59,835 bases of DNA. Source: a phage. The notes under the pieces are model-generated. The model was given only the letters and a program-made list of their open reading frames with translations. It had not been told where the DNA came from and did not search any database. The DNA lies in the sequence record PZ445421.1, one strand, 5' to 3'. Below, one piece after another: positions 1,612 through 55,097 of the stretch; positions within the stretch are counted from its first letter, which is position 1; the number at the start of each line of letters is the position of its first letter. Made by a program: the position numbers and the translations under genes.

Positions 1612-3138
1612 ATGGCCATTTCTTCGGTTCATCCTAAATATTTACAGTTTAGTGCATTATGGTTGAAGATGCGGGACTGTTTTCTTGGAGCTGACCACAT
1701 CAAAGCTCAAGGCACTTTGTATCTTCCACCGACACCTGCTATGCGTTATGACGGTATGAAACCAGGCGAAGATGGCTATATCCGTTACAACGATTATAAA
1801 GAACGTGCAGTGTTCCCGGAGTATGTCGCTGATGCGGTAGTTAATCACAGTGGTATGCTTCATAGTAAGTCAGCTATCATTCAGTTACCTGCTGCAATGG
1901 AACCCCTTCGTCAATCTGCTACCAGCAAGCGCGAAGGTTTAGATCAGCTACTACGCCGTATAAACGAGCTACAGCTACGCGATGGTCGTCTTGGCCTTCT
2001 GTTGGAGCTGCCAGCGGGAAGTACCCGTGATACGTTGCCGTACATCGCAGTATACGAGGCGTTAAGTATACGAAACTGGGACGACGGTGAAGATGATCTT
2101 GGTTCACTTAACCTTAACCTAGTTGTTCTGGATGAGTCCAAAGAAGTATTGGACAAGACTTCACTTGATTGGACTTATAAAGTTCAATATCGAGTTCTTG
2201 TTCTTGGAAGCGCCAATGTAGACGAACCGACAGATAGCGGTTACGTGTATGGGCAGTACATGACAGAACTACTTCCTGGTGAAGATGACGAACCAGAAGA
2301 GGTGAGCTCTGACGTTGTAGTCCCTCAGTATAAAGGTACTCCGCTTGAGCAGATACCTTTCGTATTTTGTAACGCTATGGACTTAGTCCCAGAACCAGAT
2401 AAACCACCGCTACTTGCATTAGCAAACAGATGCATTTCCATTTATCATGGTGAAGCTGATTATCGACAGGCTTTGTTTATGCAGAGCCAGGATACGCTGG
2501 TTGTTCGCGGTGGTATTACGAACAGTGACGCAGTTGATGATAAAGCTCCTGTTCGTGTTGGTGCTGGTGCTCGTATTGATGTATCTCCAGACGGTGATGC
2601 TAAATACATTGGTACTAATTCACAAGGTTTACCGGAGCAACGTAAAGCACTTGAAGCTGACCATAAAGACGCTCAGACCCGTTCCGGGCATTTAACCAGT
2701 GCAGAAAGTGCTTCTCAAGAATCTGGCGATGCTCTGGAAACACGTCTTATCACTAAGACTGCTTCATTAGTTGGTATTGCTAAGACTGGTGCTGCTGCGT
2801 TAGAAAAAATCCTTCGTATTTGTGCTATATGGATGGGATTAAATCCAGACGAAGTTAAAGTTACACCTAACCTTGACTTCAGCAAAGCTAATATTGAAGG
2901 CCAGGAATTGGTGCAGGTGCAGACTGCCAAGAATCTTGGTGCTCCGTTATGTGCTGAGTCTATGCACAATTGGTTGCAGGATAAGGGAATGACCTCTTTG
3001 ACGTTTGAAGAGGAGATGAAACGGCTTGAGGAGGAGCGCAAAGAATACCCGTTCCTTTTACCTCAAGTTAAAAACGATCAGAACCAAATCCAGCAAACAA
3101 CTGGAGAACAGACGGGGAATGCAAATGCCGCTAAGTAA
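1612..3138 (+). CDS. portal protein
   Basis: 508-aa ORF directly after terL, SD 'AAGGAG' upstream; size and synteny typical of portal; no motif-level proof. Confidence 0.7.
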   Translation: MAISSVHPKYLQFSALWLKMRDCFLGADHIKAQGTLYLPPTPAMRYDGMKPGEDGYIRYNDYKERAVFPEYVADAVVNHSGMLHSKSAIIQLPAAMEPLRQSATSKREGLDQLLRRINELQLRDGRLGLLLELPAGSTRDTLPYIAVYEALSIRNWDDGEDDLGSLNLNLVVLDESKEVLDKTSLDWTYKVQYRVLVLGSANVDEPTDSGYVYGQYMTELLPGEDDEPEEVSSDVVVPQYKGTPLEQIPFVFCNAMDLVPEPDKPPLLALANRCISIYHGEADYRQALFMQSQDTLVVRGGITNSDAVDDKAPVRVGAGARIDVSPDGDAKYIGTNSQGLPEQRKALEADHKDAQTRSGHLTSAESASQESGDALETRLITKTASLVGIAKTGAAALEKILRICAIWMGLNPDEVKVTPNLDFSKANIEGQELVQVQTAKNLGAPLCAESMHNWLQDKGMTSLTFEEEMKRLEEERKEYPFLLPQVKNDQNQIQQTTGEQTGNANAAK

Positions 3139-3210
3139 AGGCGTGCAGCGTAAAGCAAAAGCCAAGAGTAAAAAATAGTTGCTTCATTCTTAATGATGTA
3201 TTAGTTTTAT

Positions 3211-3241
3211 AGCGCGGTAGAACGGTCTATCGCGCTTTTTA
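3211..3241 (+). terminator. rho-independent terminator (11-bp stem with one G.U, tetraloop, T5 run)
   Basis: AGCGCGGTAGA-acgg-TCTATCGCGCT followed by TTTTT, between portal stop and scaffold start. Confidence 0.55.
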
Positions 3242-3268: not shown

Positions 3269-4147
3269 ATGAACAAATATCACATTCATCTAGCGGTAGC
3301 TTATTCCGCTGGCTTCTTCCAGTCTATGCCTCGTTTTGGTGCATTGGAACTTGAATATACTTCTGAAGATGAAATCCCGGAAAACGCGCGTGAGTATTAT
3401 TCCCAAGAAGGCGATAAGTGGATCCTCACTGGTGTAAAGGGTGGTGGCAAACAGAATATTGACAGGTTGCAATCTGCACTTGAAAAAGAACGCAACGATC
3501 ATAAAGCGGTCAAGAGTAAGCTAAGTAAGCTGAACGGACGTGATATTGACGAACTCTTGCAGCGCGACGCTGAATATGAAGAGCTTAAACTGCGTGCGGA
3601 TAAAGTTGATGATGAAAAGTTGGAGCAAATCATTAACGTACGAATCCGTAACAAGTTAACTCCGCTTGAGCGTGAACGTGACGAGCTGAAAAACAAACTT
3701 TCTACCTATGAGAAGCAAGTAGAAGAGCTGACCACAAAAGAGAAGAACCGCATCGTTAAGACCGCTCTTAGCAAGGCTGCAATGTCTGCTAAAGTGATCA
3801 CGGAAGCTATTGACGACGTGGAACTGATTGGTTCTCGTTTGTTTGAGCTCACCGAAGACGGTCAGGTTGTGACACGCGACGGTGTGGGCGTAACTCCTGG
3901 CATCACTCCAGAAATGTGGTTACAGGACATTCAAGATAAGAAACCTCACTGGTTCCCTGGAAACGTTGGCGGTGGTGCTGGTGGCTCGCGTACTCCTGGC
4001 GCTGCTGGTAAGAACCCGTGGAGTGCCGACGGTTGGAACCTTACTGAGCAGGGTAAAATTCTTCGTGAAAATCCTGAAAAAGCAGGCCGTTTGGCAGCCA
4101 TGGCTGGTGTGGACTTGAAGCGTCCAGTACGTCCAGTTAAAAAATAA
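3269..4147 (+). CDS. putative head scaffolding protein
   Basis: Track ORF 3242..4147 begins at GTG; internal ATG at 3269 has SD 'GGAG'; long charged coiled-coil-like central region and Gly-rich C-terminus, positioned between portal and major capsid genes. Confidence 0.5.
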   Translation: MNKYHIHLAVAYSAGFFQSMPRFGALELEYTSEDEIPENAREYYSQEGDKWILTGVKGGGKQNIDRLQSALEKERNDHKAVKSKLSKLNGRDIDELLQRDAEYEELKLRADKVDDEKLEQIINVRIRNKLTPLERERDELKNKLSTYEKQVEELTTKEKNRIVKTALSKAAMSAKVITEAIDDVELIGSRLFELTEDGQVVTRDGVGVTPGITPEMWLQDIQDKKPHWFPGNVGGGAGGSRTPGAAGKNPWSADGWNLTEQGKILRENPEKAGRLAAMAGVDLKRPVRPVKK

Positions 4148-24723: not shown

Positions 24724-25712
24724 AGCCGAAATCCTACAATTACCCCACGTAGATTTTCACCATAAAAAATAATAGGAGTTGAAAGACCCCTTTCGTCCTT
24801 TTCATTGAAACGAGAAGCGTCCCAATCCGTTGCAAGTCCTTTCAACTGCATAATAAGATCTATATTATACACGCCAATTGACTTAGATTCCCGGAACATT
24901 GCACTAGCACCGTCCAGCTCGTTGTAATGGGTACGCACAACACCATTTTCCATGTAAATACGCCCATCCCGCTCACAGAACGGTTTTATCTTTTCTAAGC
25001 AATTAAAAAGCTCAGTATCAAGCGTATAGACGTTGGCCCCATTTTCTGTACGCTCAATTATCTTATCAATGTTAGGCCACTTTAATTCCAGCAATTGTGT
25101 ACGCAACCAGCAACCGTCTTCGTAGTGAAATGTCATGCTGGTATCCGTACATTGAATTCTTACTGGTGGCTTTTTAATACGCAATAATTCTTTGATGGCC
25201 ATACGTGGCACAACACAATCAACGGGGAATACAGCACCGAACCAATACTGTATAATACTAGCGTTGTTGGTCGCGTACATGCTGCCCTGTTTTACCAGCA
25301 CGCCGCAAGACCACGGGCGGGAAGCATCGTCGCTTATAAACGGCGTTACGCGGCTTAAACCGTTGAGAAAAAGCTGACCGTCTATTTCGTGAATTGTTCC
25401 TTCTGGCTCTACGTGTGCAGTTGGTTTCTGAAGAGTATCTACACTAACCTTAAAGCCACCAGACTTAATGCTCAACTTACCGTTCGCTAACATTGTCATT
25501 TGTACAGCTTCATCACATGCTGCAATAGCCTTGAGCATTGGTTCAGCTTTAGGCGTACAGTCAATATTTAGTGGTACTGGACTACACAATGAAATAGTTC
25601 CGTTGAACCCGCGCACAGTACCATCAACAATACGGAAGTGAGTTAAACCTTCCTGGAGTTCTTTCTTCGCGACGGAGCCTTGAACAAACTTTAAAGCATC
25701 AAGCAAATCCAT
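24720..25712 (-). CDS. hypothetical protein; possible polymerase processivity (clamp-like) factor
   Basis: 330-aa ORF translationally coupled to the polymerase gene; only weak pattern resemblance to beta-clamp N-termini. Confidence 0.45.
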   Translation of the reverse strand: MDLLDALKFVQGSVAKKELQEGLTHFRIVDGTVRGFNGTISLCSPVPLNIDCTPKAEPMLKAIAACDEAVQMTMLANGKLSIKSGGFKVSVDTLQKPTAHVEPEGTIHEIDGQLFLNGLSRVTPFISDDASRPWSCGVLVKQGSMYATNNASIIQYWFGAVFPVDCVVPRMAIKELLRIKKPPVRIQCTDTSMTFHYEDGCWLRTQLLELKWPNIDKIIERTENGANVYTLDTELFNCLEKIKPFCERDGRIYMENGVVRTHYNELDGASAMFRESKSIGVYNIDLIMQLKGLATDWDASRFNEKDERGLSTPIIFYGENLRGVIVGFRL

Positions 25713-27858: not shown

Positions 27859-28386
27859 TTATTTGCAATAGTTAACATGGCATTTGGACGTTTCTTCAAT
27901 GGTGCATTCTACCAATTCAACACCATATTGGTCAAGCAGTTGAGGACCAATTACGTCAACCATATATGCAGCTAAGTTTTCCGCAGTTGGGTTGAATGGT
28001 AAACACACCATAGACCTGAAGAAATGACGGGCGTCTTCATTTGCAACCGTCAAAGGCGTATGATGAGTCTGATCATGATCAACAAGAACCTTAATACCGC
28101 GGATGAGTTCATCTTTCTCCCAATGCAGGAATTTATGATCCCAGTTATCTTCCAACCACTGGCAAAGCGTAGTTTTAACCACACTAAAGTCGATAACACG
28201 ACCTACGTCGTCCAGTTGCTTAAGGGCCGCAAATTCAGCTTCGTCCATGACTTTATAAGGGACTTTCGGCGCAACCTTAAAGTGAAACTTATAGTTGTGC
28301 CCGTGCAGGTGGCGGCACTTACTTTCATGGCCAACTACACGATGGCCAGCGCAAATCTCATGTGAACGGATTACTTCGTAGCTCAT
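27859..28386 (-). CDS. queD: 6-carboxy-5,6,7,8-tetrahydropterin synthase
   Basis: 'CAGHRVVGHESKCRHLHGHNYKF' matches the QueD/PTPS zinc-binding His motif. Confidence 0.85.
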   Translation of the reverse strand: MSYEVIRSHEICAGHRVVGHESKCRHLHGHNYKFHFKVAPKVPYKVMDEAEFAALKQLDDVGRVIDFSVVKTTLCQWLEDNWDHKFLHWEKDELIRGIKVLVDHDQTHHTPLTVANEDARHFFRSMVCLPFNPTAENLAAYMVDVIGPQLLDQYGVELVECTIEETSKCHVNYCK

Positions 28387-48634: not shown

Positions 48635-49033
48635 TTACGGTACTAAGACCCAACGACAGGCGAAAGGTTGGCACGTTATTTCTTCTTTAGAGATGTTAAT
48701 TCGGTCCCTGAACATTATTCTCGGATAAAAATACTTCATATAATTATCCGAATCCGTTTTACATTGTGCATTCAATATGCGGGAGCTGACAACAAATTTT
48801 AAATCCGCCCAATCCTCCATAGAATTAGAAAAAGATAAAATACGCCCATTTCCACGAACTTTAGCCGTTGACTCAACTGGTAGCCTGTGATTAATATCAC
48901 ACGGTAAGTCTAAAGCAGGTATCTTTCCTTTGATTAATTTATCTGTATTAAAAGAACCAATTTCCAAAGTATGGATATTTTGACCTTTAATTGGTTCTTC
49001 AAACTTAACATCGACAACGAGTTTGACTAACAT
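48635..49033 (-). CDS. hypothetical protein
   Basis: 132-aa ORF. Confidence 0.5.
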   Translation of the reverse strand: MLVKLVVDVKFEEPIKGQNIHTLEIGSFNTDKLIKGKIPALDLPCDINHRLPVESTAKVRGNGRILSFSNSMEDWADLKFVVSSRILNAQCKTDSDNYMKYFYPRIMFRDRINISKEEITCQPFACRWVLVP

Positions 49034-49320: not shown

Positions 49321-49644
49321 TTATTGCTCCATAGCTTGTTTGATCAATGCGTCATAAATACATTTCGCACTAGACGCGTTCCACAGTTGTTCGTCTGTCT
49401 GAACTTCCTGGCTCCATTGCTTGTCAAATAAACCTTCTTCATACGCGTCTTTAATACGCTCGCACAAAGTAAAGATGTCGGTTTGAAGAATATCAATTTC
49501 TTCTTGGGTTAACGCAACCTGGAGTTCTTTATTCATCTGTATCACCTTCTTTATTCTGTTGACCACATGTTGGTGTCCATTCGCCGAGCAATAATCGTTT
49601 ATAATCACCTTTGCGCATACGCTCGAATCACTCAGTGTGGTCAT
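49321..49644 (-). CDS. hypothetical protein
   Basis: 107-aa ORF. Confidence 0.5.
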   Translation of the reverse strand: MTTLSDSSVCAKVIINDYCSANGHQHVVNRIKKVIQMNKELQVALTQEEIDILQTDIFTLCERIKDAYEEGLFDKQWSQEVQTDEQLWNASSAKCIYDALIKQAMEQ

Positions 49645-49921
49645 GAGGATTGTCGCTTACTTTATAGTCTATATTAACACACGTTTCTTTGAAATCCATA
49701 CCTTCCAGGTCTACGTTATAACAGATATCGATTTCAATACCTGGCTCAGTTAATACCCAAAAACCATCGCCATCAATACATTCGCACCACTGAGGTTCAT
49801 TCTCGAACGCAGTTAAAGTACCGTCCTCGTCGACCGCAAGGTATTTCGCCCACACAGGAACAAACAACACTTCACCGAAGTAGCGAACAGCCTTCTGAGT
49901 AAGATTAATTTGCATCTTCAC
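49628..49921 (-). CDS. hypothetical protein
   Basis: 97-aa ORF. Confidence 0.5.
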   Translation of the reverse strand: MKMQINLTQKAVRYFGEVLFVPVWAKYLAVDEDGTLTAFENEPQWCECIDGDGFWVLTEPGIEIDICYNVDLEGMDFKETCVNIDYKVSDNPHDHTE

Positions 49922-51146: not shown

Positions 51147-51312
51147 AACCTCACCCTTGATAATAATAATCGACCGATTTTGAAATTCAGTTGCCAAGTT
51201 TTAATTTATGCGAAGTTTTTGCTATTTGCAATTGTGACATTTTGCGGTGTTTGTATGTGCAATGTTTTTGCTTTTGCAAAAATTACAACAGTCTGAAGGT
51301 GAGAAATTGTAC

Positions 51313-51520
51313 ATTTATAAAGATCGGTGAAAAAATGCACAATTTATAAAGACCCCGTAATACATAAAACGGCGAAGCGAAGTGTATGAAAAATAAGGGA
51401 AAATTTCGAGGGTTTGGGGGAACGTGTGAATTTATAAATTTTATAAAGGGGTCTCGTAGGGGTCGTCAGTAGACAACTCAAAAACAAAAAATCTTTATAC
51501 AATTTATATAAATACACACA
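51313..51520. repeat. AT-rich region with repeated ACAnTTTATAAAGA / TTTATAAA motifs and GGGGTC direct repeats
   Basis: TTTATAAAG at ~51314, ~51353, ~51441; GGGGTCTCGTAGGGGTCGTC at 51448-51467; (CA)n-like run near 51513. Confidence 0.5.
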
Positions 51521-51559
51521 TACACACATTTTTTACCTTATTTTTCATGCACTTACCTC

Positions 51560-52120
51560 CTTTCATTTCGTATATTAAGCGTTAATACATGAGCAATATA
51601 ACATATATTTGTTGCGCAACGACTGTGTGTTTTCTAACCAATCGAAAGATTGCTTTATATACGTCCGCGCGTCTAACACAAAAGAAAAGTAGATTGCAAG
51701 CGATTTTTGCTGATGTAACTCTCGAAGTGAAAGCGATTTGCGAGGTTGAAATTTTGTAGCCCGAAAACGATTCTATTTTATGGTATAAATGTCGGATTTT
51801 TCGGTGAAAGCTGGCTTTTCGGTGAGGTTGGGTGGCTGGGATCGGGGTAACGGGTAGCCCATAAAGCGAAAATAGCCGCGAAAACGGGGCACGTAGCGCG
51901 ATTAAATGGTTGGATCGGTGTAAGGGTGGCGGTGAGGGGCGAAAATGCCGCAAAATCGCGTACAGGGAAGCAGGGAGTGGATGGCTGTAAGGGCGTATAA
52001 GGCGACTAAATTGGAGTCTATGGTAATGTATGGAAGAAGGATTCAGGTTCTTAGAGCGCGAATGGTGGAGCTATGGGTGAGGAATATGTGGTCAGCAGGG
52101 TAACGCGGGAGGTGGTGCGG
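51560..52120. other. ORF-poor, strongly purine/G-rich (plus strand) region with many short direct repeats
   Basis: Repeats TTTTCGGTGA x2, GCGAAAAT x2, TGTAAGGG x2, GGTAACG x2; the minus strand is C/T-rich and G-poor. Confidence 0.45.
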
Positions 52121-52122
52121 GT

Positions 52123-52159
52123 ACAAAAACGAAAACGCCCCGTTGGACTTCAACAGGGC
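52123..52159 (-). terminator. rho-independent terminator (minus strand)
   Basis: Minus strand CGCCCUGUUG-aaguc-CAACGGGGCG followed by UUUUCGUUUUUGU. Confidence 0.65.
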
Positions 52160-52184
52160 GCGGATTCTAAAATGGTTTTAGAAG

Positions 52185-52433
52185 TTATTTACAAGTTAAT
52201 AGTACCGCCCAGGTATTATCTGGAAGCGTACCAATTCCACGGATTTTCAACTGGAGCGACTGGTGCTGCATGTTGTAGTTGTCTAGTAACTCCTGGGCCG
52301 CGGCAGCGGCGTTCGCTTCACTGTTGAGGCTGTAGTCGTTACTCGTTACCGCGCACATACCGAGACCAACTGCTTTGAAGCGCAAACCTTTGGATTGAGT
52401 CGGTGCGAGTGCTTTGACATGGATAGCTTGCAT
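52185..52433 (-). CDS. small protein (82 aa), paralog of 52963..53211
   Basis: Shared N-terminus 'M(A)QAI..K.LAPT.S.G.R.KA' and shared C-terminal pattern with the second copy. Confidence 0.55.
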   Translation of the reverse strand: MQAIHVKALAPTQSKGLRFKAVGLGMCAVTSNDYSLNSEANAAAAAQELLDNYNMQHQSLQLKIRGIGTLPDNTWAVLLTCK

Positions 52434-52462
52434 ATTATATATCTCCGTTACAATTTGAAAGG

Positions 52463-52720
52463 TTAGCAGTTTTTTAACAGGTTGATGAAGCCCGCCAGCG
52501 TGGACGCTGTTGCAACCAGGCGGCCTATAGTATGCAGTTCCGCGTGAACTTTACCGTCGTCAAATACAGTTAAATAAACGTTAAGACCATTGCAACGGAC
52601 GCGATATTTGCGCGCGTTATTACCGAAAGTTTCTAGCTCTGCGGTGATAGTCGCGAGATTAGCTATACGTTTTCCGATAATACGGCGAGTGATAGTGGAC
52701 TGGTTTAATACTGTAGACAT
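52463..52720 (-). CDS. hypothetical protein (85 aa)
   Basis: First gene downstream of palindromic promoter module 1. Confidence 0.5.
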   Translation of the reverse strand: MSTVLNQSTITRRIIGKRIANLATITAELETFGNNARKYRVRCNGLNVYLTVFDDGKVHAELHTIGRLVATASTLAGFINLLKNC

Positions 52721-52751
52721 AATAATTTCCTCTGTTAACTATGAGAAGTGC

Positions 52752-52780
52752 ATATTATTGCCCACTGTTACTATGGGCAA
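52752..52780 (-). promoter_or_regulatory. promoter with embedded palindromic operator (TTGCCCA-N9-TGGGCAA), copy 1
   Basis: Minus strand reads TTGCCC-N17-TAATAT; the palindrome overlaps the -35/spacer; ~30 nt upstream of ATG 52720. Confidence 0.5.
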
Positions 52781-52788
52781 TGTATATG

Positions 52789-52953
52789 TCACTCAGCGGA
52801 AACATATTCTAACGCTTCTGATAGTGTAGCGAAGTGACCATCACTCACCAGATTAATAGCGTATTCAAGTTGATCGCGGGTCAGGTTGCGAAACTTGTTA
52901 CGGATGTGATAGCAACGACCGCGATAAATAAGCTGGAAATAGTTGCGTTCCAT
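52789..52953 (-). CDS. small ORF (54 aa), below track cutoff
   Basis: ATG 52953 with SD 'GAGGGA' overlapping the stop of the upstream paralog; encodes MERNYFQLIYRGRCYHIRNKFRNL... Confidence 0.3.
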   Translation of the reverse strand: MERNYFQLIYRGRCYHIRNKFRNLTRDQLEYAINLVSDGHFATLSEALEYVSAE

Positions 52954-52962
52954 AATTATCCC

Positions 52963-53211
52963 TCATGCAGTGATAATGAAGGAGTAACCGCTTTGATCCG
53001 GGAGCTCACCACCAGCGAGGATCTTAAACTCGGCGTCCATTTTAGCGTTTAACTTTTTGACCAGCTCTTCCACTGCGGCGCGATGGTTGCCGTATGTGTC
53101 CAACTGGTAACTCCAGGCAATAGTCACGGAACTATTCCAGCACGTTGCTTTTACACGATCGCCACGGGACATAGTTGGAGCCAGGAATTTAGTGATAATT
53201 GCTTGTGCCAT
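52963..53211 (-). CDS. small protein (82 aa), paralog of 52185..52433
   Basis: See paralog above. Confidence 0.55.
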   Translation of the reverse strand: MAQAIITKFLAPTMSRGDRVKATCWNSSVTIAWSYQLDTYGNHRAAVEELVKKLNAKMDAEFKILAGGELPDQSGYSFIITA

Positions 53212-53216
53212 GATAA

Positions 53217-53402
53217 TTACTCCGGTAAAATTACAGTGACGTTAATATTTGCAATGCGAGCGCACTCGCGGAAACCTTTTACATAAGCATCCATTTCGTC
53301 ATAGGATGCGAAAGTTGCGTCCGGGACTGGTCCGTTGTTAATATTCACGCAATATTCATGTTCGTCCAGGTCAACCCAACAATTCAGAACGATAGTTTCC
53401 AT
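53217..53402 (-). CDS. hypothetical protein (61 aa)
   Basis: Track ORF 53217..53435; ATG 53402 with SD 'GGAGGG'. Confidence 0.45.
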   Translation of the reverse strand: METIVLNCWVDLDEHEYCVNINNGPVPDATFASYDEMDAYVKGFRECARIANINVTVILPE

Positions 53403-53403
53403 A

Positions 53404-53478
53404 TTATTTGCCCTCCGTATAGTACAGACCTGCAACTATTGGAGCTCCGAATACCAAGAACGCTAATAAGTAGAACAT
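53404..53478 (-). CDS. hydrophobic micro-peptide (24 aa), below track cutoff
   Basis: ATG 53478 with SD 'AAGGGGG'; encodes MFYLLAFLVFGAPIVAGLYYTEGK; sits exactly between two genes. Confidence 0.3.
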   Translation of the reverse strand: MFYLLAFLVFGAPIVAGLYYTEGK

Positions 53479-53480
53479 AA

Positions 53481-53960
53481 TTAGTTGCCCCCTTTATTGT
53501 TGAGCCCGTTGAATTTACGCCATGCGTAGAATTCAATCGTTGCATTATTAATATTCCAACCATTAGCTTTCGCAAGGTCACGGACGTTACCAATAGTTGG
53601 CACACTATCAGGTAACATATTATCCAGGGCATTCCAAACGTCTGCGCATTTACCTTTAATCGGGCGACGGACCCCGTTGCGCGTTTCGCTGCGCGTTTTA
53701 CCTTTGGCGGGAGCGACCGGAGCTTGTTGTGTGGTCACTTCCACGACAGTCGCTTTATCAGCTTCAACCAGATCGTTAGCCGCCTTATTAACCGCGCTTT
53801 CGCTGTACCAGTAGCGGCCACCGTCTTCGTGCGGTTCCTGGTGAATAAAGCTGTTAGCTGTCGCTGTGTCTACGTCCAGAACCTTTTTCAAGGCACGGCG
53901 AGCGTTAGACATGTTGGTGAAAAAGCGAGCATCTTTTGCTACGCGAGTGATAGTAACCAT
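53481..53960 (-). CDS. hypothetical protein (159 aa)
   Basis: Track ORF to 53975; ATG 53960 is served by the 'GGAG' that follows the first ATG. Confidence 0.5.
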   Translation of the reverse strand: MVTITRVAKDARFFTNMSNARRALKKVLDVDTATANSFIHQEPHEDGGRYWYSESAVNKAANDLVEADKATVVEVTTQQAPVAPAKGKTRSETRNGVRRPIKGKCADVWNALDNMLPDSVPTIGNVRDLAKANGWNINNATIEFYAWRKFNGLNNKGGN

Positions 53961-53993
53961 TGTGAATATCTCCATGCTGTTCTAGCGGATTGC

Positions 53994-54022
53994 ATATTTT
54001 TGCCCACTGCGACAATGGGCAA
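53994..54022 (-). promoter_or_regulatory. promoter with embedded palindromic operator (TTGCCCA-N9-TGGGCAA), copy 2
   Basis: Minus strand TTGCCC-N17-AAATAT; near-identical ~45-bp module to copy 1, including the flanking GTATATGTCA. Confidence 0.5.
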
Positions 54023-54034
54023 AGTATATGTCAA

Positions 54035-54208
54035 TCAACTATCTTGTATATTGTCCAGTAGATGCGCGAGCAGATCCAGCTGGCTCTTGGTTTTGAGAGC
54101 TTCTTCTCCGGTTTGCTCTTCGTACTCGTTGTAGAGCGTAACATACAACCATTGAAACAGGTCTTCAGCAATAAGGCACTGAGAGTCGGTTAGTTGGATG
54201 GTTTTCAT
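54035..54208 (-). CDS. small acidic ORF (57 aa), below track cutoff
   Basis: ATG 54208 with SD 'AAGGGGA'; its 3' end overlaps promoter module 2. Confidence 0.35.
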   Translation of the reverse strand: MKTIQLTDSQCLIAEDLFQWLYVTLYNEYEEQTGEEALKTKSQLDLLAHLLDNIQDS

Positions 54209-54390
54209 GGTGTTCCCCTTCGGGTGAGGCGGGCGCGGAACCCGTGTCCCGCTTAAAAACCCCCTTTACCCTACGCAGTTATAATAGGACAACTGGGTAT
54301 CAGATGCAACTATTATCTGCATTATTTTAGAACTTTTTTAGTTGTGTTTCGTAATAATAACATCCGGTACTATGCGGTAGATGGTGTGCC

Positions 54391-54470
54391 GGAAATACCA
54401 GGTAGCGCGAGCGTGTCGAAAATACCAGGTAACAGCACGCGCCGAAAATACCAGGTAGCACATACATAGA
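54391..54470. repeat. iteron array: three direct repeats with 26-bp period (core GAAA(A)TACCAGGTARC)
   Basis: Units begin at 54392, 54418 and 54444; read directly. Confidence 0.7.
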
Positions 54471-54506
54471 CAGCACATAGTGGGCAGGTGGATAGTAACA
54501 GATGCA

Positions 54507-54531
54507 ACTATACTGGACGGTACAGTATAGT
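54507..54531. repeat. palindrome ACTATACTG-N7-CAGTATAGT
   Basis: Read directly; the 13-mer CAGATGCAACTAT also occurs twice (54301 and 54499). Confidence 0.5.
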
Positions 54532-54809
54532 CGTGTAATAGATAGCATACTAATCAAATAAAAATAATAACGCGTGTAACAATAAACAACGTTATAGTAG
54601 AGCGAGTGACAGTCACATGACGTAACAATCACCTCACTGACGATCACGGGACGTTATAGTAACGCCGCGGGGCGGCTCTTAGATCTCTGCCAAGGATTCT
54701 TCGTTTGTAGATTATCTCGTCACTAGACACTTTATATCCTCACCTCACCTGCCCTATATTGTTCGTATAAAGTTAATTCCGTATGTAAATACTCGAGAGG
54801 AGATCTATT

Positions 54810-55097
54810 ATGTTCGTTCTGGCTTTCAATAGTGCAATATGGCTAGGTATCAACTGGATCCTTGCAATTATATTAGGTCTTGTGATCTGGTATGTACCGT
54901 TTATGCGTTACGCTGTTATCATTTCGCTTGTATATTTAGTTGTTAAACATTTCTTCGTATGGTGCGTATGCAATCCACAAGCTGCAAACATCAAACGTAA
55001 GAAAGCGAACTTCTTTAGTGTGCTTATTTTAGGTTCACTGATTGTGTACGCATGGTTGCTTGGTGCGCAGAACTTAGGTTGGTTCACGTTGCCTTAA
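54810..55097 (+). CDS. small multi-pass membrane protein (95 aa)
   Basis: Three hydrophobic segments; strong SD 'GAGAGGAG'; first gene of the rightward block after the iteron region. Confidence 0.55.
   Translation: MFVLAFNSAIWLGINWILAIILGLVIWYVPFMRYAVIISLVYLVVKHFFVWCVCNPQAANIKRKKANFFSVLILGSLIVYAWLLGAQNLGWFTLP

Follow-up and report, generated by a model that had tools for sequence, protein, structure and literature searches.

An intergenic hub of a Nonagvirus genome as the probable junction of a direct terminal repeat with unique DNA, carrying predicted divergent promoters and a lineage-specific repeat array

The phage DNA analyzed here (record PZ445421.1, 59,835 bases at its full length, hereafter the window) contains a gap at 54209-54809 that is bounded by a leftward gene with its ATG at 54208 and a rightward gene with its ATG at 54810. 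These boundaries agree with the original prediction, which had recognized the gap between leftward operons and a rightward block and had proposed it as a candidate replication origin or divergent control region. We refer to this gap as the hub. The approximately 1.1 kb surrounding it is 100% identical to Escherichia phage FritzHoffmann (Bas20, MZ501068; Nonagvirus, Queuovirinae), and window positions are obtained by subtracting 519 from the positions of the FritzHoffmann record, as the window (59,835 bases, compared with 59,834 in the GenBank record) is rotated by 519 nt relative to it. From 54216 onward the gap is present at 91-97% identity in all 17 other Nonagvirus records, and the gene to its left is not common to these records. 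A distant blastn search returned no match to the hub outside Nonagvirus. For the comparisons below, we aligned 13 Nonagvirus hubs, consisting of FritzHoffmann and 12 relatives that include JenP1 and HdK1. The hub of HdK1 diverges to the right of 54700, while that of JenP1 diverges to the left of approximately 54490, with unrelated sequence replacing window positions 54310-54490.

The main identity of the hub, which was missed in the original prediction, is that of a terminase cut site, and with it a physical genome end and the boundary of a direct terminal repeat (DTR). In the close relative 9g, 91 reads start and 23 end at nt 28,243 while 85 cross it, from which a physical end and a direct terminal repeat were inferred (Kulikov et al. 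2014, PMC4276943), and run-off sequencing together with restriction digestion later confirmed the cut (Tsai et al. 2017, PMC5567051). The latter study also described two 21-bp repeats ahead of the 9g cut that have SRYCRCGGGRCG as their core, and a BglII site 2 bp beyond the cut (PMC5567051). When we located nt 28243 of 9g in the window, the cut after GGCTC corresponded to 54678, again with BglII 2 bp away and with identical surroundings. The context here reads GGCTC/TT at 54674-54680 (the slash marks the cut), followed by the BglII site AGATCT at 54681-54686, and the two 12-bp cores of the terminase recognition region (pac) are GATCACGGGACG at 54642-54653 and CGCCGCGGGGCG at 54663-54674. None of the 13 hubs, including those of JenP1 and HdK1, shows any change at 54649-54699, which covers the second core together with the cut, and variation in the rest of 54605-54678 is confined to 54605-54608 and four single-phage substitutions (54619, 54638, 54648). 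The predicted fold of the pac region was not better than that of shuffled sequences. The packaging proteins are similarly conserved: TerL is at least 99% identical across 18 Nonagvirus records, and JenP1 shares with FritzHoffmann identical pac cores, a TerL of 99.4% identity, and a TerS that is identical at 181 of 183 positions. The JenP1 TerS, used as a query, is 98.9% identical to that of 9g.

The extent of the repeat can be predicted from two further relatives. The records of HdSG1 and HdK1 (63.6 and 64.1 kb), whose ends were placed where reads stopped abruptly, contain direct terminal repeats without a single mismatch, 3363 and 3367 bp in length. Both repeats end ...ACGCCGCGGGGCGGCTC / TTAGATCT..., which is window 54678/54679, and their left ends correspond to window 51440, with a difference of 3 nt between the two records. 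The cut site and the repeat boundary are thus experimental in close relatives and carried over here by near-identity, and on this basis there is a strong case that FritzHoffmann virion DNA ends at 54678. By the same homology, the virion DNA would be approximately 63.1 kb long. Inspection of the end sequences revealed no convincing motif common to the left and right repeat boundaries.

The packaging of 9g has been interpreted as headful, with a permuted redundancy of approximately 3.0-3.2 kb (Tsai et al., PMC5567051), but we believe that the published 9g data fit an exact repeat of approximately 3.1-3.4 kb better. The DraI fragment that spans the 9g cut is 13,517 bp long and would be divided into 8,362 and 5,155 bp, matching the published numbers, while the digest itself showed a doublet at approximately 8.4 kb and no 5.2-kb band (PMC5567051). 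If the left end of 9g lies at the position homologous to that of HdSG1 and HdK1 (approximately nt 25,160), the repeat would be approximately 3,084 bp and the left-end DraI fragment approximately 8,239 bp. Co-migration of this fragment with the 8,362-bp right-end fragment would explain both the doublet and the missing 5.2-kb band, and a discrete band implies a discrete left end. Run-off sequencing gave a cut fraction of 33-50% (PMC5567051), which fits the 50% expected of an exact repeat because the junction would be present twice per genome, once at an end and once internally. A DTR, of 1,091 bp, is also known from Nanopore reads of iggy, a more distant member of the Queuovirinae. An exact repeat of approximately 3.1-3.4 kb would therefore reconcile the headful reading of 9g with the repeats deposited for HdSG1 and HdK1. 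A separate observation on 9g is that read coverage is approximately 1.5-fold higher throughout the half of the genome that holds the early genes and changes sharply at the cut site (KJ419279 nt 28,243; PMC4276943); a 3-kb terminal repeat does not account for this pattern.

On either side of the cut site, the hub contains candidate promoters that face away from each other. The leftward candidate, P_L, has its -35 at 54309-54304 and its -10 at 54286-54281, and its predicted transcription start site (TSS) lies 66 nt before the left ATG. The hexamers and their spacing are kept 66-69 nt before the left ATG in FritzHoffmann, 9g, HdK1, and JenP1; in JenP1 they are retained even though the spacer sequence has diverged, and Ec1-ASingh has a positional equivalent. 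The rightward candidate, P_R, which scores best among the rightward sites of the hub, is outside the terminal repeat with its predicted start 43 nt before the right ATG, and this promoter or an equivalent is found 40-80 nt before the right gene in FritzHoffmann and 9g as well as in the sequence-diverged hubs of HdK1 and Ec1-ASingh. Divergent Pl/Pr promoters have already been proposed for 9g in this 603-bp gap (Kulikov et al., PMC4276943), and the rightward promoter that BPROM predicts for 9g maps into 54310..54384. This same AT-rich stretch possibly resembles an UP element. The recurrence of the predicted P_L and P_R at equivalent distances in diverged hubs supports, at the level of sequence, the part of the original prediction that called the hub a divergent control region. 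No transcriptome or TSS data for Nonagvirus were found in the papers searched.

The remaining component is the 26/27-bp repeat array, which is the undescribed part of the hub, as the genome end, the pac repeats, and the divergent promoters have already been published for 9g. Three tandem units had been noted in the original prediction with a spacing of exactly 26 bp; the units are present (54391-54406, 54418-54433, and 54444-54459), but the spacing between their invariant cores, ATACCAGGTA at 54395-54404, 54422-54431, and 54448-54457, is 27 and then 26 bp. The array is the highest-scoring tandem repeat of the window (Tandem Repeats Finder score 97), and an exact 10-mer repeated three times in tandem occurred in none of 1000 dinucleotide shuffles. 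Every core contains the 9-bp palindrome TACCWGGTA (4+1+4), which includes the Dcm site CCWGG and is confined to the array within the FritzHoffmann genome. In the alignment, 1 of 30 core positions varies compared with 11 of 46 spacer positions (Fisher p = 0.022), and on this evidence the array appears to be under sequence constraint. A palindromic core of the 4+1+4 type would be the usual signature of a dimeric DNA-binding protein.

The array is conserved in the relatives with the exception of JenP1, which has no copy of TACCWGGTA anywhere in its genome. In Ec1-ASingh, whose TerL is 82% identical, the equivalent position is taken by direct repeats of another sequence (GGTGTAGGYA, in three to four copies), and the pac-proximal elements are kept in diverged form. 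Because the array is absent from one of these phages and different in the other, it is best viewed as specific to lineages and open to replacement, next to a packaging site that is conserved. As JenP1 manages without it despite a near-identical replisome and terminase, the array is probably dispensable. A pattern search of IMG/VR with two spaced cores returned five Nonagvirus contigs, together with unrelated tandem repeats in giant-virus and other contigs.

Table 1. Features of the hub and of the associated terminal repeat, in window coordinates (a full stop in the strand column marks features given without a strand)
Feature	Position	Strand	Basis or remark
Predicted direct terminal repeat, 3239 bp	51440..54678	.	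Homology to HdSG1 and HdK1 record ends
5' leader of leftward early operon	54209..54275	-	Kept in all relatives including JenP1
Ribosome binding site (RBS) AAGGGGAA in leftward leader	Reverse complement of 54213-54220	-	Sequence
GC-rich segment, possible hairpin	~54226-54256	-	Sequence
Candidate leftward early promoter P_L, TTGCAT-17-TATTAT, TSS ~54274	54281..54309	-	Best sigma70-like hub score; prediction
AT-rich stretch, ~35% GC, upstream of P_L	54310..54384	.	Composition; inference
Three-repeat array, consensus YGYGYCGRAAATACCAGGTARC	54385..54460	+	Repeat detection, shuffles, alignment
Second GTAACAGATGCAACTAT copy	54495-54511	.	Overlaps inverted repeat
Inverted repeat ACTATACTG-N7-CAGTATAGT, 9-bp arms	54507-54531	.	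Sequence, shuffles, alignment
Second AT-rich stretch, ~31% GC	54545..54600	.	Composition
Leftward promoter-like site TTGTTT-17-TATTTT, -10 at 54566-54561	Within 54545..54600	-	Prediction
Terminase recognition region (pac): GTGACAGTCAC palindrome, ATCACCTCAC, two cores	54605..54678	+	Conservation, published 9g cores
Terminase cut site, right physical DNA end, right DTR boundary (GGCTC/TT)	54678..54679	.	Homology to 9g nt 28243
Candidate rightward promoter P_R, TTTATA-18-TATATT, TSS ~54767	54731..54760	+	Prediction
RBS GAGAGGAG of rightward gene	54795-54802	+	Sequence

Taken together, we consider it likely that the hub is the junction between the DTR and unique DNA, combining a terminase cut site, divergent promoters, and a regulatory array that is neither an origin nor a terminase-binding element. 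Under this model, the terminase would recognize the right ~75 bp of the repeat (54605-54678, with its two SRYCRCGGGRCG cores) and cut after GGCTC at 54678. With a left end at approximately 51440, each virion would then carry an exact repeat of approximately 3.2 kb, of the T7 or T5 type rather than headful. A leftward promoter for the host RNA polymerase inside the repeat (~54274) would drive small early genes, and a rightward one just outside of it (~54767) would drive the rightward block. The array would be bound by a dimeric protein, of phage or host origin, that tunes early transcription or the early/late switch, and it could be lost or swapped as an accessory module. The components are not equally secure, since the promoters are predicted and the role of the array is inferred. 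Most plausibly, the array would provide accessory binding sites through which early transcription or an early/late switch is regulated, although we make this assignment of regulatory protein-binding sites only tentatively. That the array has no function, or some other function, is possible but doubtful.

Several points weigh against this interpretation. The 9g papers found one read-end hot spot only and read it as pac/headful, and the 3-nt difference between the left ends of HdSG1 and HdK1 may indicate that the left end is less precise than the right. The FritzHoffmann ends themselves are placed by homology rather than from its own virion reads. All of the hub promoters are consensus matches, and such matches are common genome-wide, with 469 sites scoring 8 or more. 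The conservation statistics are weak because the relatives are ~95% identical, and the argument that the array is dispensable rests on one phage, JenP1. The array is also too far upstream to occlude either promoter, with 111-190 bp between its cores and the P_L start and more than 270 bp between them and P_R. Finally, no DNA-binding partner for the array could be assigned among the neighboring proteins, which are without Pfam domains.

We searched for such a partner among approximately 20 neighboring small proteins, none of which received a functional assignment in Pfam, PHROGs, or PDB sequence searches. No helix-turn-helix (HTH) domain reached threshold among them, with only sub-threshold hints in a 117-aa neighbor. 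The label “TetR family transcription regulator” given in 9g (gp3, whose homolog lies at 52963-53211 here) was not reproduced, as there was no Pfam match even at E values up to 10. Two proteins encoded upstream of the primase-helicase gene, at 48635..49033 (132 aa) and 49628..49921 (97 aa), are 90-98% identical in array-bearing phages and ~75% identical in JenP1, and we regard them as weak candidates for array binding partners. A 164-aa early protein was ruled out as an array-specific partner, as it is 95% identical in the array-less JenP1. If a partner does exist, the array would offer a well-defined, swappable cis element and a handle for identifying what controls the early/late switch in a phage group where no early protein has a known function.

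Among the specific alternatives for the array, the first is the one put forward in the original prediction, that of an iteron-type origin in which a phage initiator (e.g., the primase-helicase or one of the small early proteins) would bind the repeats and replication would start by melting of the AT-rich DNA next to them. The non-random character of the three direct repeats, the conservation of their cores, and the AT-rich stretches on both sides are compatible with this, as is the internal dyad symmetry of the iterons at lambda ori, and the two proteins encoded beside the primase-helicase gene that covary with the array would fit a binder. However, JenP1 is without the motif and yet its primase-helicase, DNA polymerase, and helicase are 98.6%, 99.1%, and 99.4% identical, so the array is hardly the only origin recognition element of this replisome. 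There are only three units, and their 27/26-bp spacing (~2.5 helical turns) places them out of helical phase, in contrast to the phased spacing typical of iterons (~21-23 bp or multiples of 10.5). Host-factor scans of the hub for DnaA and integration host factor (IHF) sites found neither TTWTNCACA nor WATCAANNNNTTR, no recognizable Rep- or O-like initiator is encoded nearby, and the similar repeat-rich region of T5, an architectural analog, is not the origin. The hub is also neutral in GC skew (0.015), with the cumulative minimum located 3 kb to the left at 51175. The origin reading is thus left without support, and we consider it unlikely that the repeats are origin iterons.

On composition, a better origin candidate than the hub is found at the other end of the repeat. 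The left DTR boundary (51439/51440) lies in a second repeat-rich stretch of ~1 kb without annotated genes (51198-52184), which contains a large imperfect palindrome with arms at 51380-51403/51531-51554 and 51424-51448/51493-51517. Recurring TTTATAAAG motifs, a 28-bp tandem repeat at 51298-51352, and three 16-mers spaced ~70 nt apart (51838, 51911, and 51978) are also present. The GC skew of this stretch is +0.29, and the genome-wide cumulative skew minimum at 51175 is adjacent to it.

A role in packaging or ejection is an equally unlikely explanation, in which the repeats would bind the small terminase in the manner of the lambda cosB R sites or act at the leading end in the manner of the T5 injection stop. 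The position of the array is suggestive in this regard, as it lies 220-290 bp inside the mapped DNA end and within the terminal repeat, and lambda cosB likewise has three R sites within ~170 bp of cosN. In T5, an untranslated region rich in repeats and palindromes lies where the long repeat has its inner boundary, next to the leftward-oriented pre-early genes, and inward promoters a few hundred bp from an end resemble the left end of T7. Against this, the invariant block is the 75 bp beside the cut and not the array, the DnaA boxes shared by T5-like iss regions are missing, and two-step ejection has not been reported for these phages. The comparison with JenP1 is again informative: with identical pac cores, TerL at 99.4%, and only two TerS residues changed, it has no array. 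This argues against TerS-binding repeats of the cosB type.

A more speculative version of the regulatory reading concerns looping. The motif GATGCAAC(T), often following RTAAC, recurs in the hubs of FritzHoffmann, JenP1, and Ec1-ASingh even though their arrays differ. In FritzHoffmann it occurs at 54303-54310 and 54501-54508, 198 bp apart (~19 helical turns), so that the two copies bracket the array, and the left copy coincides with the -35 of the early promoter. Further occurrences in the hub segments of relatives are at 3919 and 4237 of segment L032 and at ~1265-1400 of segment L015. It is conceivable, though improbable, that the three TACCWGGTA sites and the bracketing motifs form an operator or looping module that partially represses the early promoter through a phage protein. 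If so, this would represent a temperate-like switch in a virulent siphovirus with a terminal repeat, and it could underlie the “pseudolysogenic” carrier state of 9g. In a variant of this idea, the array at the entering DNA end could be a T5-like checkpoint for genome entry.

It is also quite improbable that the units are tandem promoters, with the minus strand of each unit (TGGTATTTT) serving as an extended -10 in a leftward early battery similar to T7 A1-A3. Minus-strand matches do exist (CTGTCT-17-TATTTT and TTTTCG-18-TATTTT, with an upstream TG, scoring 10.3 and 8.5), but the final, critical T of the -10 is missing from unit 1 in every phage and from unit 3 in five of them (GGAAAT variants), while the TACC half, which is dispensable for a promoter, is invariant. 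This pattern fits a palindromic binding site better than promoters.

That the annotated CDS bas20_0078 (54327..54647, minus strand, 106 aa) or a shorter ORF across the array is a real gene is scarcely credible: it is annotated in the GenBank record, and minus-strand frames of 67-71 codons do stay open in close relatives, but FritzHoffmann alone has the 106-aa frame open, as 11 of 12 relatives carry a 1-nt indel near 54560 that interrupts it, JenP1 has no match, the internal ATG at 54478 has no Shine-Dalgarno before it, and most depositors left the region unannotated. The call is almost certainly spurious, as had been anticipated from its implausible composition, and with the only ORF there not kept in relatives, the description of the hub as non-coding stands.

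Three further repeats had been pointed out in the hub, and all are present, with unequal claims to significance. The 13-mer CAGATGCAACTAT occurs at 54301-54313 and again at 54499, and a repeat of at least 13 bases is unlikely by chance (3 of 1000 shuffles). The first copy contains the -35 of P_L and would simply be that element of the leftward early promoter, while the second is not exact in any of the 12 relatives, with differences at 54505 and/or 54508. The 9-bp inverted repeat with its 7-nt spacer is statistically marginal (31 of 1000 shuffles), although every relative, JenP1 among them, retains its core ATACTG...CAGTAT, which sits in a shifted register in 9g. A weak leftward site resembling a promoter, predicted in 9g by BPROM, overlaps the inverted repeat, and inspection ruled out a LexA box, as the CTG...CAG span is 13 bp and not 16. 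The GTGAC-a-GTCAC palindrome, GTGACAGTCAC at 54606-54616, is no more than expected by chance when taken alone (487 of 1000 shuffles).

Elsewhere in the repeat, the leftward early operon extends from 54208 to ~52185. A GC-rich hairpin with a T-run at 52135-52159 (minus strand) ends this operon and is annotated as a terminator in HdSG1 and HdK1, so that an early transcript of ~2.1 kb would lie wholly within the terminal repeat. Two paralogous 82-aa proteins (phrog_3199; 52185-52433 and 52963-53211) are encoded inside the repeat. The first gene of the operon (54035-54208, 57 aa) is specific to FritzHoffmann, and an unrelated 101-aa gene occupies its place in every relative examined, suggesting that the gene adjoining the conserved hub is a swap point. 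HNH homing-endonuclease genes have been inserted nearby in two relatives: in HdK1 beside the hub (3536-4015 of segment L005), in place of the gene for a 95-aa membrane protein, and in JenP1 within the terminal-repeat region (2740-3213 of segment L018). T5-like phages carry HNH insertions in their repeat regions as well. The predicted fold of the leftward leader was not better than that of shuffles (z = -0.97), and the hairpin listed in Table 1 is therefore a possibility only. Rfam searches at permissive thresholds returned nothing meaningful over the hub or the left-boundary region, and no tRNAs were found.

Where these genomes truly end bears on the engineering of BASEL phages, on predictions of which DNA is first to enter, and on the interpretation of coverage data. 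Like most Nonagvirus records, that of FritzHoffmann was deposited without a terminal repeat and with a start that is not at a physical end.

Of the systems that have been characterized previously, 9g is the closest. Its hub is ~95% identical, without any difference in the two 12-bp cores, GGCTC/TT, or the BglII site. The same divergent gene blocks flank it, and terminase identity is at least 99%. The differences are that the end was measured in 9g and is placed by homology in FritzHoffmann, and that the published reading is headful packaging while ours is an exact repeat. The 26/27-bp array is mentioned in neither 9g paper (PMC4276943, PMC5567051). The 9g authors did note a temperate-like layout and a “pseudolysogenic” carrier state, and the array resembles the lambdoid operators OR1-3 in having three sites with dyad cores, a center spacing of 23-27 bp, and a location between divergent units. 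Unlike these operators, the hub sites are off the predicted promoters and are direct repeats with asymmetric flanks, there is no recognizable repressor gene, and the phage is virulent. A lambdoid tripartite operator was rejected as a model for the array, as the cores are at least 111 bp from the P_L start and the neighboring genes encode no HTH at threshold.

Iteron origins such as lambda ori, P4 ori, and those of plasmids also have direct repeats (~19 bp), some with dyad symmetry, beside AT-rich DNA. Their spacing is ~21-23 bp, compared with 26-27 bp in the hub, which is without an initiator gene or host-factor boxes, and a relative with the same replication proteins does without the hub array.

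The left end of T7 has an exact terminal repeat, an array of short repeats near the end, and the inward early promoters A1-A3 for the host polymerase. The hub shares the terminal repeat, the array a few hundred bp from the end, and the inward promoters. The T7 repeat differs in being 160 bp long and gene-free, with arrays of 7-bp units flanking it on both sides, and T7 concatemer processing uses promoters for the phage RNA polymerase, an enzyme that 9g-like phages do not encode.

The iss region of T5 offers a further parallel, with a long exact repeat that carries the first-expressed genes and a repeat- and palindrome-rich non-coding inner boundary (Davison preprint, 10.1101/866236). Like the hub, this region is more strongly conserved than the genes beside it and does not serve as replication origin. 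The T5 repeat is 10.1 kb long and the region itself ~1 kb, with paired DnaA boxes and nine DRD repeats, while the hub belongs to a repeat of ~3.2 kb, lacks DnaA boxes, and has no sequence similarity to T5 and no known two-step transfer. The resemblance is architectural only. An exact repeat would make the Queuovirinae coliphages small-scale analogs of T5 and T7 in the architecture of their genome ends.

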